A stretch of DNA of 41,930 nt from a virus: the IMG/VR virus record IMGVR_UViG_3300029231_000022, positions 1 to 41,930 of that record. One strand, given 5' to 3'. The position numbers and the translations under genes are program-made. Below, one piece after another: positions 15,127-41,930 of this stretch; the first letter of the stretch is position 1; each line of letters opens with the position of its first letter. A model generated the notes under the pieces. That model saw nothing but the letters and a program-made list of their open reading frames with translations, had not been told where the DNA came from and made no database searches.

Positions 15127-15137
15127 CGTTCTCTCCT

Positions 15138-15665
15138 TTACTCCGCGATCGCCAGCAGCACGCGGTGCAGCTCGTCCGTGTTTGCCATCGGCATCACCAA
15201 GCCCACCAGCATAAACCCCGCCTTTGCCGCGACCATCTCCGGGCATCCCGCCGGAGCGCGCAGCGTCAGCTCCACGTTTTCATACTCCGCAAGGATCGGC
15301 GCGAGCAGCGCACGGTCCACCCAGCGTACCCCGACGCCCGGCACGACCAGCGGCATCAGCTCCCGACCTTCGTAGTTCACGCTCACGCTCTGCCGCACAG
15401 CAGCTTTTTCTCCGTCTGCCGTATCCAAAAAGCAGATAGAGGGCGGCGCTTCCCGCTCCCGAATGCGCATGGCGTCCTTCTGCTTGTCGTTCAGCTCCAG
15501 CAGGCTCGGCAGATTCTCCGCCCGCAAATGCGGCAGCCCCTCCACCGGGTACAGTGCCCGCCCGTCCGTGATCCATTGCTGCACGCACCCGGAGCGATCC
15601 GTGTAGTTCACCAGCTCTGCCCAGCCCTCCTGCTTGCAGAGCTGCGCGATCTTCTTGATCTTCAT
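15138..15665 (-). CDS. Hypothetical protein (175 aa)
   Basis: ATGA overlap start, MKIKKIAQLCKQEGW... Confidence 0.55.
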   Translation of the reverse strand: MKIKKIAQLCKQEGWAELVNYTDRSGCVQQWITDGRALYPVEGLPHLRAENLPSLLELNDKQKDAMRIREREAPPSICFLDTADGEKAAVRQSVSVNYEGRELMPLVVPGVGVRWVDRALLAPILAEYENVELTLRAPAGCPEMVAAKAGFMLVGLVMPMANTDELHRVLLAIAE

Positions 15666-20176: not shown

Positions 20177-21243
20177 TGCAATGTCTCAAATGTAAAAAAG
20201 AAATCCCGCCTGACGCGCTGTTCTGCCCGTGGTGCGGCAGACGGCAGCAGCCGGAGGCGCGTAAGGCGCTCAAGCGCCCCAATGGCACCGGCTCTGTCTA
20301 TAAGCTCTCCGGCAGGCGCACGCGCCCATGGATCGCCACCCGCAGCAAGGTCGTCATCGGCTACTACGCCAAAAAGACCGAGGCGCTGGAGGCGCTCGCC
20401 CGCCTGCAAGGGCGCACTCTGGACGAGCGCTATAACATGACCTTCGCCGATGTCTATGCCGACTGGAAGCTGGAGCATTTCCGCACCATCGGTCCGCAGG
20501 GCGTCGAATCCTATACCCGCGCCTATGAGGTGTTCGCGCCCCTGCATAATAAAAAATTCCGCACGCTGCGCACGGCGGATTTTCAGTCTATCATCGACGC
20601 GCACCCGGAGCTGTCCTACTCGTCACTCTCCAAGTATAAGCAGCTCTGTACCCAGCTTGCGCGCTTCGCCATCCGTCAGGAGGTCTGCACCACGGACTTT
20701 GCCACCTTCATTAAGCTGCCGGAAAACGAGAAGCAGGAGAAAGAGATTTTCAGCGACGACGAGATCAAAAAGCTCATCGACGACGGAAGCGAGCCTGCAA
20801 AGATCGTTCTCATGCTGATCTATACGGGTATGCGCATTGGGGAGCTGTTCTCCCTCCCGCTCGCGGATTATCATGAGACATATTGCATCGGCGGCGAAAA
20901 GACAAAAGCCGGGCGCAACCGCGTCATTCCCATCCGCGCCCCCGCCCGTCCATACTTTGCCGATCTGTCCGCCAGAGCCTCCGACGACCTCCTGATCTCC
21001 GGCTACAAAGGGCAGCACAGCGTTCCCAACTTCCGCAGGCGGGACTACTACCCGCTCCTGGAGCGTTTGGGCATCGAAAAGAAAACGCCTCACGCCACCC
21101 GCCACACCTTCGCCTCGCAGGCAGTCTCCCGCGGTGTTCCTCGCGAGGTCCTTCAAAAGGTCCTCGGTCACGCCAGCTATACCACCACCGCCGATGTCTA
21201 TGTACACGCCGATATAGCCCAGCTCGTGAGCGCCATCGGCTGA
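20176..21243 (+). CDS. int: Tyrosine integrase with N-terminal zinc ribbon
   Basis: CLKC...CPWCG at the N-terminus. C-terminal catalytic region has HATRHTFAS, LGHASYTTT and VYVH. Confidence 0.9.
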   Translation: MQCLKCKKEIPPDALFCPWCGRRQQPEARKALKRPNGTGSVYKLSGRRTRPWIATRSKVVIGYYAKKTEALEALARLQGRTLDERYNMTFADVYADWKLEHFRTIGPQGVESYTRAYEVFAPLHNKKFRTLRTADFQSIIDAHPELSYSSLSKYKQLCTQLARFAIRQEVCTTDFATFIKLPENEKQEKEIFSDDEIKKLIDDGSEPAKIVLMLIYTGMRIGELFSLPLADYHETYCIGGEKTKAGRNRVIPIRAPARPYFADLSARASDDLLISGYKGQHSVPNFRRRDYYPLLERLGIEKKTPHATRHTFASQAVSRGVPREVLQKVLGHASYTTTADVYVHADIAQLVSAIG

Positions 21244-21257
21244 TTTTTTGTCAGCAA

Positions 21258-21289
21258 TTTGTTAGTAACCCAAACGGTGTCTAACAAAC
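21258..21289. repeat. Candidate integrase arm-type sites (P arm)
   Basis: TTTGTTAGTAAC at 21258-21269 and inverted GTCTAACAAAC at 21279-21289. Confidence 0.5.
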
Positions 21290-21381
21290 TATTCCCGCAT
21301 TTTGTTCAGTACATTAAAGTTATCCATATAAAACCCACCGATAACCCCGTCAAAATTGTTCAAAAAAATTCGGCAGTCTAT

Positions 21382-21426
21382 CTTTTAAGCAGGGTGTCTG
21401 GAGTTCGAATCTCCAGCGGGTCACCA
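21382..21426 (+). other. attP core: 3' half of a tRNA-Lys(UUU)
   Basis: Anticodon loop CTTTTAA, stem strand GCAGG, variable GTGTC, T-arm TGGAG-TTCGAAT-CTCCA, acceptor GCGGGTC, then A and CCA. That is exactly 45 nt (tRNA positions 32-76). No 5' half lies upstream. Confidence 0.8.
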
Positions 21427-21427
21427 T

Positions 21428-21462
21428 AAAAACCCTGAAACCGCAACGGTTTCAGGGTTTTT
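21428..21462 (+). terminator. Rho-independent terminator immediately after the tRNA fragment
   Basis: AAAAACCCTGAAACCG-CAA-CGGTTTCAGGGTTTTT. Confidence 0.8.
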
Positions 21463-21481
21463 CATTTTCTGGTATTTTTGA

Positions 21482-21504
21482 TTTGTTAGTAACGTGTTAG
21501 TAAC
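21482..21504. repeat. Candidate integrase arm-type sites (P' arm), tandem
   Basis: TTTGTTAGTAAC at 21482-21493 and GTGTTAGTAAC at 21494-21504. Confidence 0.5.
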
Positions 21505-21513
21505 GTCCGGCGT

Positions 21514-21981
21514 TCAGCCTTTTGCCACGCACCGATAATACGCCGCGATTTTCTTTTCCGCGCCGCCGCCGTCGCGATCCATCAAAAACGCCCTTGCCAT
21601 CTTTGCGTAGTAGTCCGGGCGATCCACGCCGTACTCGCGCGCGACCGCGCAATAGTCCGAGTAGATCATGTTCATCGCCGCGTACCACGCCGACGTGCCC
21701 AGCGCCTGCGCATCCACGCCGATGCTCCGCGCCGCCGCTGTCGTCTGCTCCTGCGTCCAGTGCTCGCCTGTGCTGCCGTCCTCGTTTTCCATTTCGGACA
21801 CCCACGCCCGCGCGTCTGCCTCTGTAAAGGTCTCCGCGTGCTCGCCGTGCAGCGCGTCCAGACTGCACAGCAGCCCCGCAATAATGCCCGCCTCCTCGAT
21901 ATGTCCAAGCGTCATCGGCTCGTCGATGAGCTTGTGCAGCCGCTCATGGAGCTTGCGTTTGTATTCGCATTTTTCCATCAC
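21514..21981 (-). CDS. Hypothetical att-proximal cargo protein (155 aa)
   Basis: ORF MMEKCEYKRKLHERLHKLIDE... Overlaps the upstream stop by 4 nt. Confidence 0.6.
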   Translation of the reverse strand: MMEKCEYKRKLHERLHKLIDEPMTLGHIEEAGIIAGLLCSLDALHGEHAETFTEADARAWVSEMENEDGSTGEHWTQEQTTAAARSIGVDAQALGTSAWYAAMNMIYSDYCAVAREYGVDRPDYYAKMARAFLMDRDGGGAEKKIAAYYRCVAKG

Positions 21982-26962: not shown

Positions 26963-28468
26963 TCAATCATACGTCGTAACGCGAATCGGAATATTCACGG
27001 TCGGCGTGTCCACCGTCGCCGGGAATTTCACCGTCAGGCTGTTCGCCGCCGTATTCGCGATGGCGCTTGCCGAAATGCCCAGCCATGCCTTCGAAAGCTC
27101 CGCGTCTGCCGCTGCGTCTGTGCCGCTCAGTGCCACGTCCACGAACGGCGCGGCGTTGTAGCTGGCTTTCAGCCCCGTCACCGAGACTGTCTGCGTTTTC
27201 CATGTCCCCGAGGTCACCCATCCCGCAGCCGTCAGCGTCGCCGTGTACACCGCCCCGAGCGTGATGTCGCCGGATAATGCTTTGCCGTTTACCTTGCGGG
27301 AGGTCGGCACTGCCCCGACCTCACTCGCCGTGTAGGTCGGCTTTTCTTCCGCCTTCGCCCAGTCCGGCACGGTCGGGTCGGTCTCCGTGTAGCTCTGCAA
27401 CGCCGTATCCGCCTTGCCGAGCGACGTCTGCACGTCCTTCGCAAGGTCGGCTTTGGCGACCGTGGACTTAAATGCCATGCTGCCGAGGTCGGCAAAATAC
27501 CGATAGATCTTGCCAAACATTGTGGACAGCTTTTCACCCGCCTTGAGATTGCTGCGTGTTTCTGCAATGCTGATACCCGATGTCACATTGCTGCCGTCCC
27601 CGCTCTTGGCGAGCTTTGTGTCCGCTGTATCCTGCGCTCTCGTTGCCGCAATCTGCGCGCTGCTTGCAGCCGACTGCGCGCTGCTTGCGGCTGACTGTGC
27701 GCTGTCTGCGGCTGACTGTGCGCTGCTTGCGGCTGACTGTGCGCTGCTCGCCGCCGACGCCGCAGCAGTTGCTTCATCCATCGCCGCGCCCGCCTGTTCG
27801 TCCGCATACGCAAAAATGTCCTGCGCCTTGCCCTGCGGGTCGTAGGTGGACGTGTGCATATCGCCCGAGCCTGTCCCGTCCTGCCCGTCATTGATCTTGA
27901 ATACGTGATCCCCGTTCTCGTCCGTGATGGTCACGGTCGTCACCTTGCCGGTCTTGCTGATCTGCACCGTCGGGCTGTAGCCCGGTGCGCCCGTGCTGCC
28001 CTGCGGCCCGCGAATGTTTTTCGTCCCCGGGTTCTGCAGCCCGCCGTCGTTCGTCCACGAAAGCTCACCGTCGTCGTTCACGCTCGGCGTGAACCTGAAG
28101 CCCCGCGGCCCGCGGATGTTCTTCGTCGCCGGATTCTGCAGCCCGCCGTCGTTCGTCCACGAAAGCTCACCGTCGTCGCTGACCTCCGGCGTGAACCTGA
28201 AGCCCCGCGGCCCGCGAATGTTTTTCGTCGCCGGATTCTCAAGACCGCCGTTGTTCGTCCACGAAACATTGCCGCTGTCATCCACGCTCGGTGTGAACGT
28301 AAAGCCCCGCTCGCCCTGCGGTCCTACCGCGCTTCCAATGTCAGCCACCGTCCCGTCCGTCAGCGTCAGCAGCAGATGCCCGTTCTCGTCGATCTCCGCC
28401 GCTTTCACCCCGCGCGAAACGTAGCCATTCAGCCGCAGCACCGCCTCCGGCGGAAATTCATATACCAT
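26963..28468 (-). CDS. Tail fibre protein with internal repeats
   Basis: 501 aa. Three 34-aa repeats (GPRGFRFTP..D.GELSWTNDGGLQNP.TKNIR) and five SAASSAQ heptads. Also KPTYTASEVGAVP...VNGKALSGDITLG, a fibre-type motif. Confidence 0.75.
   Translation of the reverse strand: MVYEFPPEAVLRLNGYVSRGVKAAEIDENGHLLLTLTDGTVADIGSAVGPQGERGFTFTPSVDDSGNVSWTNNGGLENPATKNIRGPRGFRFTPEVSDDGELSWTNDGGLQNPATKNIRGPRGFRFTPSVNDDGELSWTNDGGLQNPGTKNIRGPQGSTGAPGYSPTVQISKTGKVTTVTITDENGDHVFKINDGQDGTGSGDMHTSTYDPQGKAQDIFAYADEQAGAAMDEATAAASAASSAQSAASSAQSAADSAQSAASSAQSAASSAQIAATRAQDTADTKLAKSGDGSNVTSGISIAETRSNLKAGEKLSTMFGKIYRYFADLGSMAFKSTVAKADLAKDVQTSLGKADTALQSYTETDPTVPDWAKAEEKPTYTASEVGAVPTSRKVNGKALSGDITLGAVYTATLTAAGWVTSGTWKTQTVSVTGLKASYNAAPFVDVALSGTDAAADAELSKAWLGISASAIANTAANSLTVKFPATVDTPTVNIPIRVTTYD
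27653..27757. repeat. 5 x 21-bp tandem repeat (coding SAASSAQ heptads)
   Basis: Units CTG(C/T)GCGCTG(C/T)(T/C)(T/C)GC(A/G/C)GC(C/T)GA start at 27653, 27674, 27695, 27716 and 27737. Confidence 0.85.
28005..28310. repeat. 3 x 102-bp tandem repeat (34-aa fibre repeat)
   Basis: GGCCCGCG(A/G)ATGTT recurs at 28005, 28107 and 28209. Confidence 0.85.
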
Positions 28469-28899: not shown

Positions 28900-31800
28900 T
28901 CACGAATCTTCCTTGTCCCATTTCATCATGTCGTTCCACTTTTCCATGTAGCCCGCCGCGCGGTAGAACACGTTCGCCTGCCTTGCGATCTCGTTCTTTT
29001 CCTGCCGGGTCTCGGCGGCTTTGTACAGGGGCTTGAAGTATCTCGTGATCTGCGAGGAGATGTCCCGCTTCTGCACGCCGTGGCTCAGATAGTATTGCAC
29101 TGTCTCCTTCGCGTCCGTGTTCTGCTCCATCGCGTCCGTCAGTTTGCCGTACTTGGAGTAGTCAGGTCCGCCCTTCCATTCCTCCAGCATCCAGTAGGTG
29201 TCGTCCTCGGATTCATTCAGATTCTTGCTCAGAATGCGCGTTGCCATCTTCTCGTCGATGCTGCCCGACTGGAATGCCTCCTTCACCTCCGCGATTACGC
29301 CCTTCTGTATCTCCTTCCGCGCGTCGCTGTCCGAAAGCCCCTCCTGCTCCTTGAGCGCCTTGAGCTGCGACTTGTAGATCGGCTCGTACCCGTCCAGCTT
29401 CAGATCTCGTATCTTGCGATACATCTGCGCATAGTTGGCTTTGCTCGCCCGGTCTCGTTTCGCCCGCGCCTCCTTCGCCGCCTGCTCCTCTTCCGAAATG
29501 GCGGTCGCCTCCGCGTTGTTGATCGCGCTCTGGACCTTCTCGTCCGCCAGTTCCTCATCTAGGTCCATGTAGGCGTCCAACTGCGCGCGCTCGGTGTCGC
29601 TCGCGATCACGTTGTAGTAATACAGCGCCTTTGCCTCGTCCGAAATGTCATAGTCCCGCAGCGCTTCGAGCTTTGCCGCCTTCTTGCTTACGCCCTCCGG
29701 CACGTCCACGTCCTTCATCGCCTGAATGAGTTTCCACGCCTCGCGCTGCTTCACGTCCGCCGCGCTCATCGCGAGGTACGCGTTCGTCTCCTTCGTGCTG
29801 AGTTTTGAGAATCCGCCCTGTACCCAATCGCGCGCCTCCTTCGTGGCGTTGCGTCCGAATACGCCTGCCTGCACGTCGCGCAGCACGGTCATCACGCCCT
29901 CGTCGGTAAACACCGGGTACTGCATCTGAAGCTCGCCCTTGTTGTTTCGGTAGAACTTGCCGCCCTTTGCCACGGCGTAAATGCCCTGCGCCACCTTGCG
30001 TATCTGCCCGCCTCCGAACGGCAGCCCCAGATACAGCAGCGGGTCTCGGACTTCCTCCCATAGCTTCGCGTTCTTCGTCTCGCTGTCTAGCTCCTTGTTC
30101 GTCGCCACCTTCCAGATCGCAGACACATCCGGCAGCGCCGAGGAAAACGGCACGCGTCCGCCGCCGAGCACCCCGCCTGCCATCGGCAGCTCCTCGGCGG
30201 TGCTCGTCAAAAAGTTCGTCACCGTGTTCCCAAAGCCCGCAGGCTTTCCCTCATGGATAAAGCCAGCCTCCGAGCCGAACGCCACGTCGAGGACGTTGTT
30301 GAGCTTATAACCCGTCGCGTCGCCCACCAGCTCGTTCGTCATGTCGATCGGGTCAAGCGCCGCCCGTCTGCCCACGACCTTCTCGTAGAGTTCGTTGTAT
30401 GCCCACGCCGAGAAAAACATCTTGAACAGCGCCCACGCCAGCGCCTGCAAGCTCCGCTTGCGCATCTCGCGCGGCAGGTCCTTGAAGATGTTGGAGAACT
30501 GATTGTTCACCTCCAACTGGAATTGTGTAAACAGCTTCACAAACGGGTTTCTGGACTGGAACATCGTCGGCGTCGCGCCCTTGCTTCTGTCCGCCATGAT
30601 GTTTGCCGCAAAGCGATCCGCCTCGCGCATCGCGTCCTCCTCCAGCATCCCGCGCCGGAGGTTTTGGTTGTACCGCGCCCGGACGATCGTGTCTGCCGTG
30701 AATGTGTCGATCCACTCCATGGGCATAGACAGCTTTGCGCTCAAATTTCCCTGCCATGTCCGCACCAGCGGATCGCTGCCCCGGCGGTTCGTCAGGAACG
30801 CGCTGCGCTCCCAAAAGCCGTCGTCGTTCTTCATCGCCGCGAGGGTCTGCCCCATCGCCTGCACCATATCGCCCGTGGATACATAGCCCCACGCCTGCGT
30901 CAGCGGAATAAAGTTCGTCAGCCACGACCCCGGATTCATCGCCACCATGTTTGCCGCCGCGCGGCTCTCCAGCCAGCTCATCGCGTTGTAGAACCCGCGC
31001 CCCAGCACGCTCTCCACGCCCCGGTCGAGCTTGCTCTTCTTGTTCGCCAGCAGGTTTGTGTACTCATCCAGCCACGCCGCAAAGCCTGAAAGCTCAAACT
31101 TTGCGTTCTCATAGAGGTCCTTGATGCGCAGTTCCTTGTCCTGCTCGCTGATGCTATCATCCGCCCGGATCGCATCCACCCGCTCGCGCACGCCCTCGTT
31201 CGATGTGCGGTATCGGACCTCCGAGGCAAATGCCCGCAGCCGCTGGATGTTGTCCGTCTGGAATACGATGTCCGCCGCGCCCTCGATGTACTTGTCAAAG
31301 CCCTCCACCGCGTCATACGCTGTGTTAAAGCCAAGGCGCTCCTGCGCGTTTCCAAACCATGTGATACCGGGCTTAAAGGTGTGTGTCAGTCCGTTGATGG
31401 TCGTCGGCAGCGCCGTCACATCCGCTTTGATGCCCAGCGCCTTGCCCATCACCGCCAGCACGCCGTCCGTCTGTCCCGGCTGGAAGTGCGGAAAATACCC
31501 CTTGCGGTAGTCGATCGGCTCATAGCCGTTGCGCACGCGCACGTCGTTCATCTGCGTAAACAGCTCGTCGTAGATCCTTCTGAACTCCCCAACGGCACGC
31601 TCGACCTTCTCCTTTCGGATTCCGGGGTTCTTCTCCCACAGCTCGCGTACCACGGCTTCCCACTCGGCAAGCGTCTTTCCGTCCCGCTTCGCGTCCATGG
31701 GGCGCTTTGTGAGCTGCCGGATGTTGTCCATCGCCTCTCCGTAGAGCTGCACCGCGTGCGCCTCGCTCACCACGTCCCCGGCTTTGACCTTCCGGCTCAG

Positions 31801-34800
31801 ATCCAGCTTTCTCACGCGAGCGCGGTATTCGTTCTTAAAGCGCGTGGACTTCGCCTGCTGCGTGTGTACCGGCTCAAAGATCGTCTCGTTGATCCTCTTC
31901 GCGTCCGCCGCCGGGAACACGTCCTCCACGTTCCGCTCCGCCGTCTCGCGGTCATACCGAAATCCCGGCGCAAGCCCCTTCTTGTCCTTCGCCTGTTCGC
32001 TGTTTGTAAGCAAAGGACGCACCTGCTCGCGGTAGTCCTCCTTCACGCCCCTGCGCCACCGGGCGATCTGCGCCGTGAGCGCGGCATAGTCTGCCTTTGC
32101 CTCGTACACGTTCAGAATGCTCTTCGCGTTCTTCCTGTCCTGAATGTCCTCCGGCGCAAGCTCTCCGCGCAGCAGCCGGTCCAGTATCCGCTCGTCCTCG
32201 TCCGTCAGCAGATTCTTGCTCTGCACCCGCTCATAGGCGCGTCTGGCTTCCCTCTGCCGCTTGTAGAGTTCTTCTACCTCCGCCTGCGACTTCGGCGCTT
32301 CCTGCGCCAGCTTCGTCCGCTCGCGGCTCTCTGCCCACGCTCTGGCGGTGCGCAGCGAGGCTTTCATGTCCTCCACGGCAGCCTCAAAGTCATGCCTTGC
32401 CCACCGCTTATAGTCCCCGCCGTCGCCCTTGTGCGCCTCGTCCAGCGTCTGCTTCGTGATCTGGATCTTATCCGCCACCTCGATCATGCGCATCAGCTGA
32501 TCCGCCGGGTTCATGATCGCCTCCGGGAACAGCCCCGGCGCTTCGTCGTGGAGCTCTCCGTACAGCGTGTCGATGCCGATGCCCTCGTTGTTGAGTAAGA
32601 TCTTCCCGCGCACCGCCCGCCGGAACTGCTCAAGGTCTGCAAACTCCGCCCGCACCTCCGGCGTCACCCGGATGCCCGTCTTGAGCAGCTTGTCGCGGAT
32701 GTGCTTGAAGTCGTGGAAGAACTCGTAGTTTACCTCAATGCCCTCGTCGTAGGCTTTGTCAAACGCTCGGTCGATGTCATTTTGCGCGATCTTGCCGGTT
32801 TTCAGGAACTCTTTCATCAGTTCTTGCAGCGCAGGTTTTACGATTCGCTGCTGTTCGTTGTACGGGACGCTCATTGCCCGTCCCGCCTGCCGCACCGCGC
32901 TGTTCACCGCCTGATCCACAAACGCCCGCGCCTTCCCCGGCAGCTTGTCGTAGCTGTACACCTTCGGCTTCTCTCCCGTCTCCGAAGCCTCCCCTTGGTG
33001 ACCAAGGGGAGGTGGCGCGGAGCGACGGAGGGGATCAGAACTACCCCCGTTCTGCTCTTCCGCCACGTTTGCTTCCGCGTTTGCATCCCGCGTCTCCGGC
33101 GATAGCTTTGCAGTCAGTCTCCCTGAATCGTCCAGCCTTACGACGTCAGAAAATTTTTCGCCGCGCAGGTTGACACTTCTGCCCTTGTAGGATATACTAC
33201 CGATATAACCGTTGCGCAGAAGCTCTCGGGACGCTATTGTAAGCCCGAATTGGCGAAGAAGCGCAGCGGTTCTTTTTTTGTCCGCATACAGTACCTCGCT
33301 CGCCTGCACGAACGCAGCCGGGTTTTTCTTCGTAAACGCCGTGTTCACCTTCTGCATATCGTCAAGCTGGAATCCGTTTTCCTGCGGTCTCAGATCCAGC
33401 ACCGTCAGAATTGGCTTTTCATTTTGCGCTTTCAGCGAACCGAAAATCACCAATCTGCTATTGTCGTTTCCGCGAGCATTCGTCCCTTTGCTTTTCAAGA
33501 TCATCACAGGATCGTCCAGAATTTCCGGGATTCGTTCGATCTCGCGCAGCGTCATTTCCGGGTGCTCCGCCAGAATGGTGCGGATTTTCTCGCCGTTCAT
33601 GTAGATGTCGCTTTCGATCGCGCCCAGCCCTTGCAGCACATCGCCCGTCGTGCCCAGCGTAAAAGAAGCATCCGACGGCATCCCGTCTCCCGCCCACTCC
33701 TTCAATTTTTCTGCATACGCAGCATCGACGCTGTACGCCTCCGGCGGACCTCTGGTCTGTGCCGGTTTTTTTGCGCTCTGGCTCGCGTTGCTGTCTGCGG
33801 CGGCTCTGACGCTGCTCTGGAGCTTGTCCGCGCCCAAGCCCATGCGGTTGATACCCGCGTAGGCGTCGCACACGATCTCGTCCAGATACGCGCTCAGATC
33901 CTCGCCTGTGTAGCAGCCCTCGTAGGCCTCGCAGTATTTCCGCGCCAGCTTATCCCGCTGCTCCCGCGAAAGCCCCAGCGCGTCGATCAGGCGCTCCCGC
34001 AGCCCCGGTTCTGCTTCCAGCCGCAGGTGCATCGCCTCGTGCTCGGCGGTCTTGATAACGCCGTCCTTCGCGTCAATGTTGATCCATACGGTCGTTCCCT
34101 GTGCAACACCCTGTACGCTCATCTCTCTGCCGCCTGCGGTCCTGATCCTGATCGACCCGCTCACAAGACGCACGTCGTCCGCGCCGGCATCTGTAAGGAT
34201 TTGCTTTGCCTGCTTGAGGGCGGGATATTCCTGCACCATCGCGTCCGGCACGCGGTAGAACATTTTCTGCTCCGAGCCGTTTTCGATCCCGTCCGCCTTT
34301 GGGCTTAACCGTTCCGCTTTCGCAGTGCCGAGGACACTTTGGATTCTAAGGCTTTCCTTGACGCCGAATCCGCCTGCGGATTCTTTCTCTGCTCCTCCTG
34401 CTCCTCTGCCCACGCGTCCAGACGGCTCATCGGAATCCATACCTGCATCCCGTTCGCCGCCGTTACCAATACCCGCTGTTCCATTTTCTTCTCCTTTCCG
34501 CCTGCCTTCCTTGTAGGCTTCCTGCAATACCTCGTCCGCAATGCCCCTCTGAGAATCCTCCCGCTTGAATTTCCAGCCGAACCGTCCCTTCCCGTAGGCG
34601 ACACGCACCGCCTCTGCATACGTCGGGATGTCCATCTGCACGCGGTCGTTTGCATCAAAATACCCGGAGATAAAATATTGCGTCATCGCAAAGCCGTATT
34701 CGCGCTGCTTTGCGATCCGCTCCAGCTCCGCCGCGTCCTGCTCCTCTGCCGCTCTCCTTGCCGCAAGCTCGGCGGCGCTCTCCTGCGCCTGTGCGGACTG

Positions 34801-37512
34801 CTCTGTCTCGCGCAGCTCCTTGTCGGATAGGGTCTGTGTCTCGCGTCCCATCTCCTTCTGCTGCCGCTCGTTCTCCAGCCGCGCCCGCGCAACGCTCGCC
34901 ACGTCCTGCATATCCCGCTCCTTCGCTTCCAGATACGCCTCGTCCTGCGCGATCTGCTCCCGCAGCTCCCGCACCCGCGCATTTATGGCTTCCCCTCGGG
35001 GGGAAGCTGTCGCCGTAGGCGACTGATGAGGGGAAGGCTCGTTATTTCTGACCTGCTGTGCGTTTGCTCCTTCCAGCCCCCGCAGCTCCGCCGTCCGCGC
35101 ATCGTACTCCTTTAGCCGCGCCTTATACTCGCGCAGCGTGTCTCCGACCTTCCCGAACAGCTTGTCGCCCTTCACGCGCCCGCGTACATCCTCCTGCCCC
35201 GCCTGCCGCAAGACCGTCCGCACCTCCGGCTCACCGTTCGCACCCACGGTTTCCTGCGCACCTGTAGGGGCGGACGCCTCTGTCCGCCCGGCGTTCTCCG
35301 TTCCGACCTGCCGCGCGTTTGCACTCTCCAAAGCCTCCCCTTGGTGACCAAGGTAGCGAAGCGGCGGCGCGGTGTTATCAGACAGCCCGGTGGGCTGTCT
35401 GTCCCGCGCCGTGACCGAGCCGTAGCGAGACGGTGGCGCGGAGCGCCGGAAGGGATCAGAACTACCCCCGTTCTGAGCTGCCGCCACGTCTGCCTCCAGC
35501 TCCATATTGTCCGGCAGCCCGTCCCCGTCCTCGTCGATCACGTCCATATTGGACGGAATGTCGTCCTCCACGTCCATATTCTCCGGCAAATCTGCCGGGC
35601 GCTGCACGCCGATTGTCGGCACGGTATCCCCTGCCTTCCCCTCGGGGGGAAGGTGGCGCGAAGCGCCGGATGAGGGGAAGGCTTCCCCGCTTGCAGCCGT
35701 TGCCGCGTTTCCTCCCGTCACCGGCGTATTCGGCGTATCGCTCGCGCCGGTACGGAACGCGTCCTCGATCTCGCTCGTCAGCAGCCGCACCGTCTGTGCG
35801 CCTACGCCCGACGTGCCCGCCGCTGCCGCAGCAGTGCCCGTATCGCCCGCGAGCATGATGTTGATATTCCCGATGGCAACGTCCAAGCCCTTCTGGATGT
35901 CGTTCACGAACTCCTGCTGTCCGGCGTAGTAGGTGCTTCCCACCTCCGCCTTTAGTTCCTTCACATGCGTCCGCAGGTCACGCAGCGCCTGCTCATATTC
36001 CTCCTGCGTCGCATACTGCCTGCCGTTCATGTGGTTCTGGATGGCGTCAAACTCCTGCGTGATCTGGTCATACTTTGCCTTGACCTGCTCGCTCGCCGCC
36101 TTCGTGCTCCGCATGGCGCTCAGGTAGCCGTCCACCATCGCGAATGCAAACGACATTCCAAGCTCCGTGGCGATCTCTTCCTTCGTCATCTTCCGCCCGG
36201 ACGCCACGGCACTCACCCCGGTGTTCGCCGCCGAGAACGTCGCCGATGCCGCCGTCTGCCGCAGATACTCCTTGAACGGCGTCATCATCTGCTTGTCCGT
36301 CAGCAGCTTCGCAACGCCCGACGATACCAGCCCCGACGCAATCGACCCCGCCGCGCCGCCTGCCGCGCTGGCAAGCGTGCGCTGCGCGAATTGCCCGCCG
36401 GTCATCTCGCCCGTGGCAAGACCGCCCGCGCTCTGGATCGCCTCCCGCGCCGCAAACGAAAGCGCCGTCTGTCCTGCGGAAATTGCCGCCTGTCCCAGCT
36501 TTGTTGCGCCCAGCGCCGTCTTTGCAAGCGCACCCGCCGCAGGGTTGAGTGCCCCCTGCGTCAGCAGTGCCGTGCCCGCTCCAATGCCGACCTTGGTCGC
36601 CCAGGTAATACCCGGCTCTGCCGCCTGCGCCTGCTTTCCCGCCTGCTCCGAGCTTTGCAGCGTCTTGATGCCCGTCTCATCTCCTGCCGCCGCAGCGCGC
36701 AGCTTCGCCATGGATAAAAGCCCCGTGGATTCCACCGCCGCCGACCGAAACGCCGTGCTCTTCGGATGCAGCCGCGCGTAAAGCTGGTCGTAGATTGCGA
36801 CCTGCCGGGTGTATTCCTCGTTGTCTCCGCGCATATACGCGTCCCACGCCGGGGCGTAGTCCGACGGATTGTACGCGTTGCCGGTCAGGTTCTGCACCTG
36901 CGCCGCCTTCAGCAGCGCCTTTGCTGCCTTCTTCTCGTCCTCGCCCCACTGCATCCTGCTCAACATCTCGCCGCGCTTGGCAATGCCCTCCGTGTCCGTG
37001 GGCGTCTGTGCCAGCACCTTCTTGAAAAGATCGTCCGCCCAGTGCCCCTGCCACTTCTTCATTGCCGCGTCGCTGCCGTGGTCGCCGTAGTCGATCGCCG
37101 GCGCTTCTTCCTTGGGCGTCGTATCCTGCCGGTATCTTCCCAGCGCCCCCATAGTCGGCGTGTCCAGCGAATAAGCCGGCTTTCCCGCCGTCATCCCGCG
37201 CATCGCCCTGTACCGCTGCTGCGTGATGCTGTCCACCGCCGCCTTGTACTGCTCAAACGTCACCCCGCCCTGCGCCTTGTACCGCTCCTGCGTCAGACTG
37301 TCCGAGCCTGCCTCCCCTTGGTGACCAAGGGGAGGTGGCGCGGAGCGCCGGAGGGGATCAGAACTATCCCCTCTCCGAGTTGTTGCCACGTTCGCCGCCG
37401 GCGCGGCAGCCGCCCCGCTCTTTCGATAGCTGCCGCTCTGCTTATACTCCGTCCATTTCCCCGTCCGGCGCTCCTGCTCCTGCTGTTTTTTATACTCGCT
37501 CCATGCTCCCAT
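28900..37512 (-). CDS. Giant 2870-aa virion-block protein (multidomain; possible polyvalent/ejection protein)
   Basis: Single uninterrupted ORF. Gly/Ala-rich hydrophobic stretch at aa ~300-440. HEAMH (HExxH) at nt 34027-34041. Six in-frame repeat-element insertions. Confidence 0.85.
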   Translation of the reverse strand: MGAWSEYKKQQEQERRTGKWTEYKQSGSYRKSGAAAAPAANVATTRRGDSSDPLRRSAPPPLGHQGEAGSDSLTQERYKAQGGVTFEQYKAAVDSITQQRYRAMRGMTAGKPAYSLDTPTMGALGRYRQDTTPKEEAPAIDYGDHGSDAAMKKWQGHWADDLFKKVLAQTPTDTEGIAKRGEMLSRMQWGEDEKKAAKALLKAAQVQNLTGNAYNPSDYAPAWDAYMRGDNEEYTRQVAIYDQLYARLHPKSTAFRSAAVESTGLLSMAKLRAAAAGDETGIKTLQSSEQAGKQAQAAEPGITWATKVGIGAGTALLTQGALNPAAGALAKTALGATKLGQAAISAGQTALSFAAREAIQSAGGLATGEMTGGQFAQRTLASAAGGAAGSIASGLVSSGVAKLLTDKQMMTPFKEYLRQTAASATFSAANTGVSAVASGRKMTKEEIATELGMSFAFAMVDGYLSAMRSTKAASEQVKAKYDQITQEFDAIQNHMNGRQYATQEEYEQALRDLRTHVKELKAEVGSTYYAGQQEFVNDIQKGLDVAIGNINIMLAGDTGTAAAAAGTSGVGAQTVRLLTSEIEDAFRTGASDTPNTPVTGGNAATAASGEAFPSSGASRHLPPEGKAGDTVPTIGVQRPADLPENMDVEDDIPSNMDVIDEDGDGLPDNMELEADVAAAQNGGSSDPFRRSAPPSRYGSVTARDRQPTGLSDNTAPPLRYLGHQGEALESANARQVGTENAGRTEASAPTGAQETVGANGEPEVRTVLRQAGQEDVRGRVKGDKLFGKVGDTLREYKARLKEYDARTAELRGLEGANAQQVRNNEPSPHQSPTATASPRGEAINARVRELREQIAQDEAYLEAKERDMQDVASVARARLENERQQKEMGRETQTLSDKELRETEQSAQAQESAAELAARRAAEEQDAAELERIAKQREYGFAMTQYFISGYFDANDRVQMDIPTYAEAVRVAYGKGRFGWKFKREDSQRGIADEVLQEAYKEGRRKGEENGTAGIGNGGERDAGMDSDEPSGRVGRGAGGAEKESAGGFGVKESLRIQSVLGTAKAERLSPKADGIENGSEQKMFYRVPDAMVQEYPALKQAKQILTDAGADDVRLVSGSIRIRTAGGREMSVQGVAQGTTVWINIDAKDGVIKTAEHEAMHLRLEAEPGLRERLIDALGLSREQRDKLARKYCEAYEGCYTGEDLSAYLDEIVCDAYAGINRMGLGADKLQSSVRAAADSNASQSAKKPAQTRGPPEAYSVDAAYAEKLKEWAGDGMPSDASFTLGTTGDVLQGLGAIESDIYMNGEKIRTILAEHPEMTLREIERIPEILDDPVMILKSKGTNARGNDNSRLVIFGSLKAQNEKPILTVLDLRPQENGFQLDDMQKVNTAFTKKNPAAFVQASEVLYADKKRTAALLRQFGLTIASRELLRNGYIGSISYKGRSVNLRGEKFSDVVRLDDSGRLTAKLSPETRDANAEANVAEEQNGGSSDPLRRSAPPPLGHQGEASETGEKPKVYSYDKLPGKARAFVDQAVNSAVRQAGRAMSVPYNEQQRIVKPALQELMKEFLKTGKIAQNDIDRAFDKAYDEGIEVNYEFFHDFKHIRDKLLKTGIRVTPEVRAEFADLEQFRRAVRGKILLNNEGIGIDTLYGELHDEAPGLFPEAIMNPADQLMRMIEVADKIQITKQTLDEAHKGDGGDYKRWARHDFEAAVEDMKASLRTARAWAESRERTKLAQEAPKSQAEVEELYKRQREARRAYERVQSKNLLTDEDERILDRLLRGELAPEDIQDRKNAKSILNVYEAKADYAALTAQIARWRRGVKEDYREQVRPLLTNSEQAKDKKGLAPGFRYDRETAERNVEDVFPAADAKRINETIFEPVHTQQAKSTRFKNEYRARVRKLDLSRKVKAGDVVSEAHAVQLYGEAMDNIRQLTKRPMDAKRDGKTLAEWEAVVRELWEKNPGIRKEKVERAVGEFRRIYDELFTQMNDVRVRNGYEPIDYRKGYFPHFQPGQTDGVLAVMGKALGIKADVTALPTTINGLTHTFKPGITWFGNAQERLGFNTAYDAVEGFDKYIEGAADIVFQTDNIQRLRAFASEVRYRTSNEGVRERVDAIRADDSISEQDKELRIKDLYENAKFELSGFAAWLDEYTNLLANKKSKLDRGVESVLGRGFYNAMSWLESRAAANMVAMNPGSWLTNFIPLTQAWGYVSTGDMVQAMGQTLAAMKNDDGFWERSAFLTNRRGSDPLVRTWQGNLSAKLSMPMEWIDTFTADTIVRARYNQNLRRGMLEEDAMREADRFAANIMADRSKGATPTMFQSRNPFVKLFTQFQLEVNNQFSNIFKDLPREMRKRSLQALAWALFKMFFSAWAYNELYEKVVGRRAALDPIDMTNELVGDATGYKLNNVLDVAFGSEAGFIHEGKPAGFGNTVTNFLTSTAEELPMAGGVLGGGRVPFSSALPDVSAIWKVATNKELDSETKNAKLWEEVRDPLLYLGLPFGGGQIRKVAQGIYAVAKGGKFYRNNKGELQMQYPVFTDEGVMTVLRDVQAGVFGRNATKEARDWVQGGFSKLSTKETNAYLAMSAADVKQREAWKLIQAMKDVDVPEGVSKKAAKLEALRDYDISDEAKALYYYNVIASDTERAQLDAYMDLDEELADEKVQSAINNAEATAISEEEQAAKEARAKRDRASKANYAQMYRKIRDLKLDGYEPIYKSQLKALKEQEGLSDSDARKEIQKGVIAEVKEAFQSGSIDEKMATRILSKNLNESEDDTYWMLEEWKGGPDYSKYGKLTDAMEQNTDAKETVQYYLSHGVQKRDISSQITRYFKPLYKAAETRQEKNEIARQANVFYRAAGYMEKWNDMMKWDKEDS
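32985..33090. repeat. Palindromic mini-element, in-frame in the giant ORF
   Basis: CCTCCCCTT-GGTGACC-AAGGGGAGG at 32988-33012, plus the B and C modules and tail. Flanked by CGTCTCCG at 32977-32984 and 33091-33098. Confidence 0.85.
34988..35067. repeat. Palindromic mini-element (TCGG-loop type), in-frame in the giant ORF
   Basis: GCTTCCCC-TCGG-GGGGAAGC, T, GTCGCC-GTA-GGCGAC, then TGATGAGGGGAAGG. Confidence 0.85.
35262..35322. repeat. GGGCGGAC-GCCTCT-GTCCGCCC hairpin module, in-frame in the giant ORF
   Basis: Same 22-nt hairpin as at 3078 and 16255. Tail is ...CCGCGCGTTTGC. Confidence 0.8.
35332..35494. repeat. GGTGACC-type element interrupted by a 78-nt nested hairpin insert
   Basis: The A hairpin is truncated after AAGG (35353). 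Insert 35354-35431 contains GGCGCGG..AGACAGCCC-GGT-GGGCTGTCT..CCGCGCC. The element resumes at GGTGGCGCGGAGCGCC. Confidence 0.8.
35633..35712. repeat. Palindromic mini-element (TCGG-loop type), in-frame in the giant ORF
   Basis: CCTTCCCC-TCGG-GGGGAAGG, T, GGCGC-GAA-GCGCC, then GGATGAGGGGAAGGCTTCCCC. Confidence 0.85.
37308..37396. repeat. Palindromic mini-element near the giant ORF N-terminus (aa ~38-68)
   Basis: Three clean hairpins: CCTCCCCTT/AAGGGGAGG, GGCGC/GCGCC and GAGGGGA-TCAGAACTA-TCCCCTC. Confidence 0.85.
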
Positions 37513-38614: not shown

Positions 38615-38947
38615 TTAGCCCCCTTTTCTGGTTTCTGCGCTTGGCTCTCCCTTTGGGAGAGCTGTCGCCGTAGGCGACTGAGAGGGTTCACCCTCCGCCC
38701 CCCTTGCCTTCCCCTCGGGGGGAAGGTGGCGCGAAGCGCCGGATGAGGGGAAGGGCTGTGCGCTCTGCTCTGTCTGCACGTTCACTTCCGCGTTTTCGCC
38801 CTCCCGCAGTTCCCGCTCCACGACCGTCAGCAGCTCCGCCCGCAGTTCCCGCAGGCACTGCTCCGCCGCCAGCGGCGGCAGGGCGGAATCGTTGATCGCC
38901 TGCACAATATCGTCCCGCAGCTTAAAATACCGTTTCGTAAAATTCAT
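38615..38947 (-). CDS. 110-aa protein whose C-terminal half is repeat-element encoded
   Basis: The N-terminal ~55 aa look ordinary (MNFTKRYFKLRDDIVQAINDS...). Residues ~50-110 map onto the modules at 38643-38800. Confidence 0.55.
   Translation of the reverse strand: MNFTKRYFKLRDDIVQAINDSALPPLAAEQCLRELRAELLTVVERELREGENAEVNVQTEQSAQPFPSSGASRHLPPEGKARGAEGEPSQSPTATALPKGEPSAETRKGG
38643..38800. repeat. Two tandem palindromic mini-elements inside the 3' half of 38615..38947
   Basis: GCTCTCC-CTTTG-GGAGAGC with GTCGCC-GTA-GGCGAC. Then CCTTCCCC-TCGG-GGGGAAGG with GGCGC-GAA-GCGCC and a tail. Confidence 0.85.
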
Positions 38948-38956
38948 TCCGTCCTC

Positions 38957-40177
38957 CTATCCCGTCGGCAGCCCGACGATGTTGTTCACAAAATTAAAGT
39001 CCACTGTATCCGCGCTGAAACTGATTTTTCCGCCTGTGTCCAGCTTGATCCAGCAGTCGCTCCCCGCTCCTGCGTTGCTGATAAACAGATCGCCGCCCTT
39101 TGCCGTGATCCGCATCGCCGCCTCGGAGTTCAGCACCACCGCATACGCACCCGTGCTTGCCGACCCGATGGAAAGCCCGTCGTCGTCTACCAGCAGCATC
39201 AAATCGTTGATCTTTTTCCCGGTCACGTCGATCATGCCCGCATACGCCATCAGCTCGTCTACCTTTTCGTTCAGATCCAGCAGTGCGTCATACACATCCA
39301 CGTTCCCGAATTTGAGCGCATTCAGGCTCATCACGCCTTTTGCGTCCACCTTGCACTTCGTCCCGATGGAAAGCCCGCTCGTCCCGAAATACAAGCCCCC
39401 TTCCGCGCCGTAGCTGCTTTTGCCGTACCAGATGCTTGATCCCGTCACGTTCCACGGTCCGAGCTTCGACCCTTCCGCCGCCGTCAGCGTGCCGGTCAGC
39501 ACCGCCCCGGACGCCTCCAGTGTCCCGGATGGGAAGTGCAGCTTCTTTCCCGACAGATACGCCACCTTTAAGCCCTGCTGCCAGAAGGCGATTTCTCCCG
39601 GCGTCACGGTCACCACCTCGCCCTGCGTCTCGTCGATGACCTCGCCGTTCAGCTCCGTCTTTGTGGATATGTTCCCCACGCCTACGCCGTACACCGGCTG
39701 CGCGTTCTCGTCGTGGAATAAAAGCCCCGTCTTGACGTACTGCCGCGACGTCACGCCGTACCGCTCATCCTTGCTGTTGATGCCCGCCGTGTAATCAAAA
39801 AGCTGTGTAATGCCCTTGCTGTTGATCTCGATGGTCGCGCTCGTCGCCTCCGCGTACTCGCCGAACGTGGACTTTGCCACATACCCGCCCTGTAACGTCT
39901 TGGTGAACTGCTCGGAGTTCTCCATCGAAAAGTCCGCCGTCTTGATGATGAGCTGCTTGAGCGAGGCAAACGCGCTCTGTTTCTTTTCCTTCTCGGTCCT
40001 CAGTGCCGCGTCCTCGTTGATGCCCGTGGAAATTTCCTGCAAGATCGCCTCCGCCGACCAGTCCGCGAGATTCAGCTGGTCAATGATGTCCCGCATCGAC
40101 CGCTGTAATGCCGCGAGCTGCTCCTGCACCGACCCCTCTGTCCGCTTCGGATACGCTAAATTCAGGCTGCCCATCAC
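38957..40177 (-). CDS. Virion structural protein (406 aa), fibre/spike-like
   Basis: ORF overlaps the upstream gene by 4 nt. Coiled-coil N-terminus and beta-rich G/S/T-rich remainder. Confidence 0.6.
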   Translation of the reverse strand: MMGSLNLAYPKRTEGSVQEQLAALQRSMRDIIDQLNLADWSAEAILQEISTGINEDAALRTEKEKKQSAFASLKQLIIKTADFSMENSEQFTKTLQGGYVAKSTFGEYAEATSATIEINSKGITQLFDYTAGINSKDERYGVTSRQYVKTGLLFHDENAQPVYGVGVGNISTKTELNGEVIDETQGEVVTVTPGEIAFWQQGLKVAYLSGKKLHFPSGTLEASGAVLTGTLTAAEGSKLGPWNVTGSSIWYGKSSYGAEGGLYFGTSGLSIGTKCKVDAKGVMSLNALKFGNVDVYDALLDLNEKVDELMAYAGMIDVTGKKINDLMLLVDDDGLSIGSASTGAYAVVLNSEAAMRITAKGGDLFISNAGAGSDCWIKLDTGGKISFSADTVDFNFVNNIVGLPTG

Positions 40178-41930
40178 ACATCACTCCCCGCCTCCAGCAC
40201 GCGCGACAGCGAAAGCAGCCGGAAATCCCCCGTGCCGGATATTTTGAATTGCAGGTGGTCGCACCGCCGCGGGCGGATCGGGAGCAGAAACGATCGAATG
40301 CCCCGCCCCTCCATGTGCCCGCAGTGCCGCCACTGCTTGTCAGAATCATATTGCACCCAAAAATCGCACCGTGACCCCCGCGGAAGCTGCATCCGCAGAT
40401 TCAGCCGCGAGATGTATTTCTTGCCCACCAAGCCGTAGGTCATGATGCCGGTCTCCGCCCACCACGAAACAGGCGCTTCCGGCGTGCCCTCCTGCCCCAT
40501 CAGGTCCAAAACCGTCACGCTCCCGCTCTGATCCTTCGCCGCGTAGAGCGTATCCCTGCCGCTCGTGAGCGCTGTGAGCGTTTCTGCGCCGCTTTCCGCG
40601 TGCCATAGCCCCCGCATCGTGTCGTACACAAAAAGCCGCTGTGCGCCGTCCGGCGCGCTCATGGCGATGTAATACTTGCCCCGTGCGGTCGCCGCCATTG
40701 CGTTTTTGTAGAGGATGCCGCCCAGCGCGTCCGAAATGCGGGACGGCGCGCCCCCGTCGTAGCGGTACACGCCCAGCCGCGACTTGTAGTACAAAACGTT
40801 ATCGACCACGCACAGGCTCTTGCCCGACCCGTCCTGCACGCCCTCGCAGGTGAGCTGCACCACCTGATGTGCGCCCTTGCTGGACGGATACACCCTGTGG
40901 ATAAAATCCTCCTTGAAAAACATCGGGCTGTCGTTATACGTCGCCGCGCCCGTCCACTTCCCGTCCGTGCCGACGCTCGCCCGGTACGAATCGGTCGAAA
41001 TGCCCATGTAGCACTCCCAGTTGCGGAAGTCTCCCAGCTTGCAGCAGTAAATTTCGTTCAGCATATCGCCGTCCTGCCCCACGCCGTAATAGCAGCCCCA
41101 AAGCCGGTTGCCGCACTCCGTCACATAGTCCAGCTCCGGCAGGCGGCGGTTCGTGATAATTTCCCCGCTCGTCTGCTCTGCTGTGGTATCCAGAATGCCG
41201 GTGATGATGATGTAGTCGTCCGCCGCGCCGTATAAAACGTGCGACCCGTTCAGCGCCTTCGCCTGCTCCGTCCCTGTGATGCCGCTCAAAATGATCCCGT
41301 CGTACTGCTTCATGCCCACGCCGATGCCGCCGAGCGATAATTTCACATACGTCGTCGCCACCTGCACCCACTGTGCCGAGCTTGCCGACCACTGCTTGAG
41401 CGCGTGCGGCTCAGAGCCTGTGTCCACCCAATACATCCCGTTCGTGCGGTCTGTCGGCTCTGTGTCCGTCGCCGAGGCTGTAATGCCCGCCCCATCCGGC
41501 GTGCAGAGCGTGATCGTCAGCTTCGCCGCGCTCGTCGGCGTCACGGTGTTCTTGCGCGCCATGTACCCGGCGTCCATTGGTTTGAGCGTGTTGTAGTAAA
41601 TGCCGTCCGGGAATATGCAGAGGTAAGCGCCCATGCTCACGAGCTGCTTTTCCCCCGCCGTGAGCGTCACGCCCTGCGGCAGCTCCTGCAAAATGCCCCC
41701 GCAGTAAAGCCCTGGCAGCGTTGCTCCCTGCCACACATACCACAGCACGCCGTCCCGCGCCGTCCAGCCCAGGAGCGACCCTTCGCCCAGCGCCTTCAGC
41801 GTGCTCCGCCGCATACGCGGCGCAAGCATCGGGAAGTAGTCTCCCGTTAAATTCTCAAGGTCGTAAAACGCCCCGTCCTGTATCTGGAGGTTGTGGTCGT
41901 AGCCGTAAAAGACCTCCGTCACCGCCTGCT
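40174..41930 (-). CDS. Virion structural protein (596 aa when joined to 133..100), function unknown
   Basis: The ORF runs off the window end and continues at nt 100-133 through the 99-bp overlap. W/Y/G-rich, beta-rich appearance. Confidence 0.7.
   Translation of the reverse strand, partial: QAVTEVFYGYDHNLQIQDGAFYDLENLTGDYFPMLAPRMRRSTLKALGEGSLLGWTARDGVLWYVWQGATLPGLYCGGILQELPQGVTLTAGEKQLVSMGAYLCIFPDGIYYNTLKPMDAGYMARKNTVTPTSAAKLTITLCTPDGAGITASATDTEPTDRTNGMYWVDTGSEPHALKQWSASSAQWVQVATTYVKLSLGGIGVGMKQYDGIILSGITGTEQAKALNGSHVLYGAADDYIIITGILDTTAEQTSGEIITNRRLPELDYVTECGNRLWGCYYGVGQDGDMLNEIYCCKLGDFRNWECYMGISTDSYRASVGTDGKWTGAATYNDSPMFFKEDFIHRVYPSSKGAHQVVQLTCEGVQDGSGKSLCVVDNVLYYKSRLGVYRYDGGAPSRISDALGGILYKNAMAATARGKYYIAMSAPDGAQRLFVYDTMRGLWHAESGAETLTALTSGRDTLYAAKDQSGSVTVLDLMGQEGTPEAPVSWWAETGIMTYGLVGKKYISRLNLRMQLPRGSRCDFWVQYDSDKQWRHCGHMEGRGIRSFLLPIRPRRCDHLQFKISGTGDFRLLSLSRVLEAGSDV
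41832..41930. repeat. Second copy of the 99-bp terminal repeat
   Basis: Identical to nt 1-99. Confidence 0.95.

Follow-up and report, generated by a model that had tools for sequence, protein, structure and literature searches.

The window analyzed here comprises all 41,930 nucleotides (nt) of the IMG/VR virus record IMGVR_UViG_3300029231_000022, and its first 99 nt recur exactly at its end (1–99 = 41832–41930); given this terminal redundancy, the genome is complete and circularly assembled, with a length of 41,831 bp. A single giant open reading frame (ORF) at 28900–37512 on the minus strand accounts for 20.6% of it, in agreement with a preliminary description, made without database searches, which had placed one uninterrupted frame of about a fifth of the genome at exactly these coordinates. 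This frame runs from an ATG through 2870 codons to a TGA stop (28900–28902), its start lying 13 nt past the stop codon of the preceding gene, with the Shine–Dalgarno sequence GAAGGAGA located 6 nt upstream of the ATG. The frame also occurs uninterrupted elsewhere: 56 protein clusters contain counterparts of 2571–3516 amino acids (aa), encoded on separate metagenome contigs, many of them 41–42 kb long. Judged by its domains and its context, the giant ORF encodes a phage-type polyvalent protein. This class is already known; three points are added to it here, namely an unannotated module that would act as its carrier, the cassette variants at fixed junctions, and the in-frame repeats of a host type that serve as linkers.

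Domains and cassettes of the giant protein

The multidomain, polyvalent character that the preliminary description had favored over a tape measure is borne out by a MuF_C domain, a domain of the HExxH...E type, PolyVal domains in relatives, the portal/capsid context and the variable length of the protein. The IRTILAEHPEMTLREIERIPEILDDP segment, which had been likened to MuF-C modules, was matched by Pfam MuF_C (PF18819) at aa 1312–1415 (nt 33268–33579; E = 2e-12), well above the gathering score (47.5 bits vs a cutoff of 27.6) and over model positions 4–101 of 103, and the same model matched 12 of the 21 A2 members. This segment is a predicted PBECR RNase-fold domain and lies within the cassette of the second effector slot; an N-terminal MuF domain is not present in the giant protein. 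Homologues with the same backbone carry PolyVal domains in their front parts, where the Pfam families PF18760, PF18812, PF18798 and PF18838 were detected. ART-PolyVal, PBECR3, LPD3 and LPD23 were all found in relatives, ART-PolyVal being present in P0020 and others, and one relative bears the name 'PolyVal ADP-Ribosyltransferase' in nr. Besides the domains, the portal–terminase packaging system and the virion-gene context agree with membership in the phage-type class.

Mapping the breakpoints of the giant protein against 59 close homologues revealed recurrent breaks in similarity at aa ~134–143, 613–649, 1258–1283, 1455–1469 and 2770. At the DNA level, comparison with one relative (L001) yielded blocks of 94–96% identity covering aa 1–601, 642–674, 731–1258 and 1471–2642, interrupted by two replacements. 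Across the 56 giant relatives, mostly on contigs of ~41–42 kb, the rear 40–49% is common at 90–98% identity, with differing PolyVal domains in front of it. By these sequence comparisons, the front half is a string of exchangeable cassettes and the region of aa ~1520–2650 is constant.

All features of the giant protein lie on the minus strand. The N-terminal leader (aa 1–135, 37108–37512) is kept in most relatives, at 42–95% identity, even where the next cassette differs. This next cassette (cassette B; aa 136–599, 35716–37107) gives way to unrelated sequence in, for example, P0023 and P0029, and it holds the Gly/Ala-rich, low-charge stretch that had been noticed at aa ~300–440 (nt 36193–36615), in which aa 301–400 are 45% Gly plus Ala with only 7 charged residues; a homology search with the cassette returned only 5 matches, all nameless. 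Effector slot 1, at aa ~601/642 after '...PVTGG', is occupied here by a short repeat element and in L001 by an extra ~230 aa, and the PBECR3 nuclease domain of P0009 (aa 655–778) sits in the insert at this slot; P0020, like P0009, has a PBECR3-containing cassette here, such cassettes measuring about 150–230 aa. Effector slot 2 (aa 1259–1470, 33103–33738), which follows TRGPPE (aa 1253–1258), holds the 213-aa MuF_C cassette, its place being taken by LPD23 plus LPD3 in P0009 and by 475 aa of different sequence in L001, a length also seen in P0020. At the opposite end of the protein, an alternative C-terminal tail (aa 2771–2870, 28903–29202) is different in about half of the close relatives.

A putative zincin-like metallopeptidase (MPTase-like) domain occupies aa ~1049–1252 (33757–34368). 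Its HEAMH motif, located at nt 34027–34041 (aa 1158–1162) exactly as first described, is the only HExxH of the giant protein and is accompanied by a conserved Glu-bearing helix, DEIVCDAYAGINR, at nt 33844–33882 (DEIVCDAYAG at aa 1211). Both the HExxH and the downstream (E/D)EIxxDAYAGxN helix are kept in homologues down to ~25% identity, and the only three Cys residues of the protein (aa 1194, 1200 and 1215) fall just after the HExxH motif. The AlphaFold2 model of the domain consists of a helix, a β-sheet, the HExxH helix and the Glu helix (strands 74–106, helix 113–128 and helix 167–180 in model numbering), with predicted local distance difference test (pLDDT) scores of 85–97. This is the arrangement characteristic of a zincin-like MPTase, namely an HExxH helix after a small β-sheet with a conserved Glu on the next helix. 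Among the 21 members, one divergent sequence matched Tox-MPTase2 at E = 3e-4 and another a YgjP-like family at 0.06.

Directly after the peptidase domain, the conserved motif TRGPPEAYS (aa 1253–1261, 33730–33756) forms the left edge of effector slot 2. Its general form is P..[RKQEA][YF]S[IVLA], often with acidic residues after it (here 'TRGPPEAYSV'). At least one copy was found in 167 of the 343 collected giant proteins vs 59 after shuffling, an enrichment of about 3-fold, and at least two copies in 40 vs 3. The motif flanks MuF_C on both sides in some homologues. It may represent a processing site or a linker, though this reading is no more than a lead.

The constant rear module and its genomic setting

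The all-α rear module (aa ~1519–2650, 29563–32958) begins at YDKLPGKARAFVDQ. Many of its distant matches begin at ~aa 1740, and in L095 a single in-frame TAA (9983–9985) falls at the equivalent of that position, dividing the product into an 1859-aa effector part and a 1191-aa rear module; on the basis of this split point and of the starts of the distant matches, the core of the module is placed at aa ~1740–2650. The TAA itself may mark a true separation of the two parts, have arisen by nonsense mutation or be subject to read-through, and in related phages two neighboring genes encode the effector part and the rear module separately.

An exhaustive HMMER search with aa 1570–2769, counted as protein clusters at 50% identity, returned 2,696 cluster representatives at E ≤ 1e-3, 1,648 of which reached E ≤ 1e-30. 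Almost all of these matches lie at the C-terminal end of proteins of 2,000–3,900 aa, and a few are standalone proteins of 1,000–1,400 aa. No family of Pfam, PHROGs or NCBIfam was found over the module, either in the giant protein or in the standalone homologues; the homologues are named 'hypothetical protein' only, and the sole species label among them is Dysosmobacter welbionis. AlphaFold2 predicts a nearly all-helical structure made of many short and medium helices (pLDDT 69.6; predicted template modeling score 0.57). The preliminary description had attributed long helical and hydrophobic sections to the C-terminal ~1350 aa, and the helical part of that statement stands, as this region is predicted to be almost wholly helical; the hydrophobic part was overstated, since no 19-aa window reaches a mean Kyte–Doolittle value of 1.3.

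Comparison of the modeled module with the predicted viral structures of BFVD by Foldseek yielded 60 matches at E < 1e-3, mostly at 10–13% identity. The named ones are mostly rear fragments of giant viral proteins labeled ART-PolyVal, LPD3, LPD38, MuF-C or nuclease; a podophage 'structural protein' is also among them, and many others are uncharacterized. A search of the literature on the Flavobacterium phage 'Structural protein' among these matches turned up no evidence from virions. Two of the most conserved stretches of the module, aa 2033–2067 (TALPTTINGLTHTFKPG..., 31312–31416) and aa 2306–2338 (MADRSKG...FTQFQLEVNNQ, 30499–30597), were modeled with pLDDT below 50 and are both rich in invariant polar and aromatic residues; they may be interfaces to oligomers or partners, or an active site.

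The gene order around the giant ORF was read from orthologous loci (pre-computed Pfam matches) together with our own scans of this genome. Nearly every gene is on the minus strand, with the integrase (20176–21243) on the plus strand, and the large terminase (TerL), the P22-type portal, the major head protein and the phrog_511 protein share the strand of the giant ORF. The order opens with TerL, a portal of the P22/SU10 type, a Prp-like peptidase, a 283-aa protein and the major head protein; it continues with two small proteins, a 596-aa 'internal virion protein' of PHROG 511 and proteins of 405, 110 and 361 aa up to the giant ORF, and past the latter it passes through a 121-aa protein, a repeat-bearing fiber-like protein, a DUF6273/Hoc-like protein and an amidase endolysin to the integrase. 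Searches of this neighborhood with Pfam and PHROGs gave no match to tube, sheath, chaperone or tape-measure families, and no tube or chaperone genes were present in the three related loci L001, L002 and L096. Given the integrase, and given that one relative (L002, 64% identical) is an integrated prophage adjoining smpB, the phage is temperate. The portal family and the absence of tube, sheath and tape-measure matches make a short-tailed (podovirus) morphotype most likely, and the host is probably an Oscillospiraceae bacterium.

Several of these genes show features of their own. The Prp-like cysteine peptidase gene (3180–3500, minus strand; PF04327 in orthologues, phrog_4478), located between the portal and putative scaffold genes, suggests proteolytic maturation of the head proteins, and its product could also act on the giant protein. 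A 582-aa ORF at 40174–41922 probably begins past the end of the window, its orthologues measuring 596 aa. The fiber-like protein (501 aa; ORF 26963–28468, minus strand), encoded downstream of the giant ORF, contains about 7 tandem 21-nt and 3 tandem 102-nt repeats (27611–27778 and 27982–28310), and its orthologues have 528, 542 and 714 aa, which suggests variation of repeat number in a receptor-binding protein. The integrase region (~20158–21524) does not align with L096, a genome otherwise ~97% identical, and the two integrases measure 355 and 347 aa; the integration module, possibly together with the attachment site, has been swapped between the two genomes. The non-structural half encodes a PAPS-reductase-domain protein (12531–13409) and a DUF4406 protein (9129–9728), both on the minus strand.

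Hairpin elements in the linkers

The linkers of the giant protein are the site of a family of in-frame hairpin elements. The type-1 element measures ~110 nt, comprises three hairpins and encodes a recurring peptide (...SSDPLRRSAPPPLGHQGEA...), and its last hairpin is an 11-bp perfect palindrome, CCTCCCCTTGG-TCA-CCAAGGGGAGG. Compensatory changes were observed in 2 of the 21 predicted pairs, one in the middle hairpin and the other being the base pair that closes the palindrome. Together with two related unit types, the family occupies 11 sites of the genome, all in one orientation, that of transcription. Three sites are intergenic (3068–3186, 5400–5516 and 8663–8813), five fall in the giant ORF (aa 37–1518), one lies in frame (14893–15012) in a 253-aa protein with a C-terminal 3D domain (14485–15246), and two are in small ORFs (16245–16375 and 38648–38795); of the ORF at 38615–38947, about 49 of 110 residues are element-encoded.

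Within the giant ORF, a type-1 element encodes aa 37–77 (37285–37406), with the recurring peptide, and a type-2 element (...SGASRHLPPEGKA...) encodes aa 600–627 (35626–35719), where it occupies effector slot 1. These are followed by a cluster at aa 671–752 (35258–35504), in which a type-1 copy split by a nested insertion precedes a type-3 unit (GRTEASAPTGA), by a partial element (...SPTATASPRGEA...) at aa 828–843 (34970–35028), and by a further type-1 element at aa 1478–1518 (32961–33087), which forms the linker directly before the constant module. Relative to a 64%-identical orthologue (P0039), three of the copies in the giant ORF are absent from the orthologue, including those at aa 37–77 and 828–843, and the one at aa 1478–1518 is replaced there by another unit type. 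The latter copy is also missing in P0008, P0026 and P0043, where a Glu-rich linker takes its place.

The nested insertion (35354–35428) consists of 75 nt, or 25 codons, placed inside a palindrome arm. L096, ~97% identical over an aligned ~25 kb of its 28.5-kb locus, is without exactly these 75 nt. The insert starts and ends with TCGCTA(C), and its flanks show no clean duplication; neither terminal inverted repeats nor a target-site duplication were identified at it, and no transposase gene was seen in the genome. Only its hairpin core of ~25 nt recurs, in at least 120 gut-metagenome stretches and with unrelated flanks, and no source element was identified for the insert. The 23-nt core of the type-1 element was found in 86 stretches of genome assemblies from Oscillospiraceae, where it is spread over many contigs of a genome; by this comparison, which covered the core of type 1, the core is common to the element and to a dispersed repeat of the presumed host family. 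The long ORFs in which host copies seemed to lie look like spurious high-GC translations. No Rfam family matches the elements.

The elements sit precisely in the inter-module linkers of the giant protein. Most simply, this placement is explained if insertions persist only at points where the protein can accommodate additional disordered residues. The ends of some swapped cassettes coincide exactly with the edge of an element. Cassette edges within 40 aa of an element signature amount to 12 of 82 vs 6 of 82 for random positions, and relatives devoid of the element have swapped cassettes too, so that a role of the elements as obligatory recombination junctions is weakly supported and was set aside.

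The closest parallel is found in the Rickettsia palindromic elements (RPEs), in-frame palindromic repeats which lie in protein-coding genes and add a conserved peptide (Ogata et al. 2000, as summarised in PMC10969869). In common with RPEs, the elements described here are short, palindromic and dispersed, form a multi-copy hairpin family, keep the ORF intact when in frame, and differ in presence or absence between relatives in the genes that carry them. Unlike RPEs, they reside in a phage genome, share their core with repeats of the presumed host family and are located in the linkers of a polyvalent protein. We did not find short palindromic repeats described as coding sequence in phage structural-operon genes, and a 2024 review of miniature inverted-repeat transposable elements makes no mention of phages.

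Proposed packaging and delivery, and competing explanations

We consider it likely that the giant ORF encodes a phage-type polyvalent protein that is packaged in the head of a short-tailed temperate phage and ejected from it. Packaging and delivery are suggested by the gene context and, by analogy, by the proteomics of gp47 of phage phi24B, and we infer self-cleavage and the targets of the effectors. Polyvalent proteins were defined by Iyer, Burroughs, Anand, de Souza, and Aravind (2017, J Bacteriol, PMC5512222), who predicted their packaging and their processing by an MPTase, and for whom the zincin-like MPTase is the hub domain of the class. The protein described here conforms to theirs in its giant size and many domains, in the portal, terminase and virion genes that surround its gene and in combining MuF-C with a zincin-like HExxH peptidase. 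It differs in its ~1100-aa helical C-terminal module, which is not among the domain descriptions of that paper as retrieved by term searches and has no Pfam family, as well as in the unmatched MPTase-PolyVal model, the missing MuF N-terminal domain and the in-frame dispersed repeats in its linkers.

Gp47 of the Stx podophage phi24B (2811 aa) contains MuF-C and LPD domains; proteomics revealed its presence in virions, and it has been proposed to be packaged in the capsid and to act as an ejection protein (bioRxiv 10.64898/2026.04.10.717836). Our domain scan of it (vb_24B_48, HM208303 49148–57571) confirmed MuF_C, LPD38, LPD5 and LPD1. The two proteins are alike in their length of about 2800 aa, in belonging to temperate short-tailed phages (a morphotype predicted for ours) and in MuF_C, which is their only common domain, whereas the LPD5, LPD1 and LPD38 of gp47 are not in the giant protein; tblastn against GenBank phages gave no match to gp47. 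The virion RNA polymerase of coliphage N4 (gp50, about 3500 aa) is likewise packaged in a podovirus head and ejected into the cell, and besides an MPTase-like region it has a helical part required for injection and another part required for encapsidation (PMC5512222). An RNA polymerase of the N4 type was rejected for the giant protein, with no match in Pfam, PDB sequences or Foldseek. By analogy, the giant protein would resemble gp47 and the N4 polymerase in outline while standing outside both families. With the ejection proteins gp14/gp15/gp16 of T7 and gp7/gp20/gp16 of P22 (PMC8954989) it shares a helical, poorly conserved and mosaic character with domain swapping, and with gp16 of T7 and P22 its operon position, as the largest gene just before the fiber genes. 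This synteny is the sole resemblance to gp16, and in contrast to the T7 and P22 proteins the giant protein is 2–4 times larger, has no predicted C-terminal transmembrane helices and shows no similarity to them in sequence or fold.

In the mechanism that we propose, a single giant polypeptide would be made late, together with the virion proteins, would probably be packed inside the capsid and would be expelled into the cell with the DNA. The rear module (aa ~1520–2650), probably along with the N-terminal leader, would act as the carrier, being needed for the protein to enter the head and, during ejection, to pass through or form a conduit. Its freight would be the front part, in which disordered linkers join the Gly/Ala-rich cassette, the zincin-like peptidase and an effector slot with the MuF-C/PBECR RNase-fold domain; sister phages would deliver other effectors instead (ADP-ribosyltransferase, PBECR3, LPD3 and LPD23). 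The peptidase would most likely cut the polypeptide at the linker motifs and free the effectors, which would act in the first minutes of infection against host defenses or host RNA.

Several observations weigh against this interpretation. The support for virion incorporation in this family is indirect. Some neighboring genes have neither annotation nor solved relatives, and the podovirus morphotype rests on the portal family and on missing tail matches. The Kyte–Doolittle scan of the whole giant protein indicates no classical transmembrane helix. For the peptidase domain, the Pfam MPTase-PolyVal model gave no match, nor did any Pfam peptidase family match the query, and Foldseek of the model against PDB returned no significant zincin match (best E 0.04); the zincin assignment therefore rests on motifs and modeled topology, by which membership among the MPTases is partly shown. 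The rear module, in turn, found nothing in PDB by phmmer or profile search, with a best Foldseek E of 0.2, so these PDB searches detected no sequence or fold relation to solved ejection proteins. The PDB library can be expected to include ejection proteins of the T7-like and N4-like kinds. Homology of the rear module to phi24B gp47 was also rejected, at an hhalign probability of 0.8%.

Among the competing explanations, the best surviving one, to which we assign a minor share of the probability, is that of an external or tail-associated structural protein that penetrates the cell wall, with a zincin that degrades peptidoglycan and a helical rear that forms a tail extension or needle. The gene is indeed directly upstream of the fiber-like genes, the phage probably infects a Firmicute with a thick wall, the structural block yielded no other recognisable wall hydrolase associated with the virion, and the authors of the phi24B study suggest a peptidoglycan-degrading role for the metallopeptidase domain of their phage (bioRxiv 10.64898/2026.04.10.717836). 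Yet the peptidases of the HExxH...E zincin type in polyvalent proteins are credited with processing or effector roles (PMC5512222), the Pfam scan found no wall-binding or known hydrolase domain, and the swappable RNase-fold and ADP-ribosyltransferase modules make sense only if they are delivered to the cytoplasm.

Somewhat less probable still is that the protein stays out of the virion altogether and acts in the cytoplasm as an effector or toxin, expressed either from the prophage or late in infection and serving, for instance, superinfection exclusion or conflict between phages. Such a role would suit a temperate phage, with its integrase and a relative residing as a prophage next to smpB, and the domains are effectors of the conflict type. 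However, the gene is embedded in the structural operon, co-oriented and tightly spaced, the closest experimental analogue was detected in virions, and a soluble toxin would hardly account for a constant helical module of ~1100 aa spread over 2,696 clusters.

That the protein is the tape measure of a long-tailed phage whose tube and chaperone genes escaped recognition appears very improbable, as the preliminary description had already held on the grounds of length and of the missing tube and chaperone genes. The great length, the helical content, the Gly/Ala-rich stretch and several unannotated neighbors are what one might expect of a tape measure. Such proteins scale at ~0.15 nm per residue, which would imply a tail of ~430 nm here. 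We rejected this candidate because no tape-measure, tube, sheath or chaperone family was matched in Pfam or PHROGs and because cassette swaps give close relatives lengths anywhere between 2571 and 3516 aa, which makes the protein unfit as a ruler of tail length; moreover, the portal belongs to the P22/SU10 type, the modeled structure contains numerous short helices instead of one long coiled coil, and domains of enzyme type are present. Finally, an assembly or frameshift artifact fusing several genes, which the preliminary description had named as a possible refutation, is the least credible explanation of all: the region is split in some related contigs (by the single in-frame TAA in L095 and into several fragments in L094), but the ribosome-binding site is canonical and the same open frame recurs in the 56 protein clusters on separate contigs, one of them the ~97%-identical genome (aligned over ~25 kb).

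Returning to the ejected polyvalent protein as the preferred explanation, we further propose, tentatively and as rather less likely than not to hold, that at least one of two extensions is true. The first is that the hairpin repeats act both as ready-made disordered linkers and as shared DNA homology at module boundaries for the exchange of effector cassettes among co-infecting or resident phages; if true, this would mean that repeats assist the shuffling of protein domains in a weapon gene of phages. The second is that the rear module is the carrier or ejection conduit of a very large and so far undescribed family of giant proteins that are packaged in the heads of phages infecting Gram-positive gut bacteria; no podovirus ejection proteins for Gram-positive hosts were known to a 2022 review (PMC8954989).

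Polyvalent proteins are thought to be the first phage proteins delivered into the cell and thus to decide whether the host defenses are beaten. The locus described here offers a natural comparison series, in which dozens of near-identical gut phages share the same carrier and differ in the cassettes at two fixed slots, and this series is suited to asking what each cassette counters and how cassettes are exchanged. The large conserved module, with its 2,696 clusters at 50% identity, is unnamed in any of the domain libraries searched, and the in-frame repeats of host type indicate that genes of a phage structural operon can carry short palindromic repeats as part of their coding sequence.

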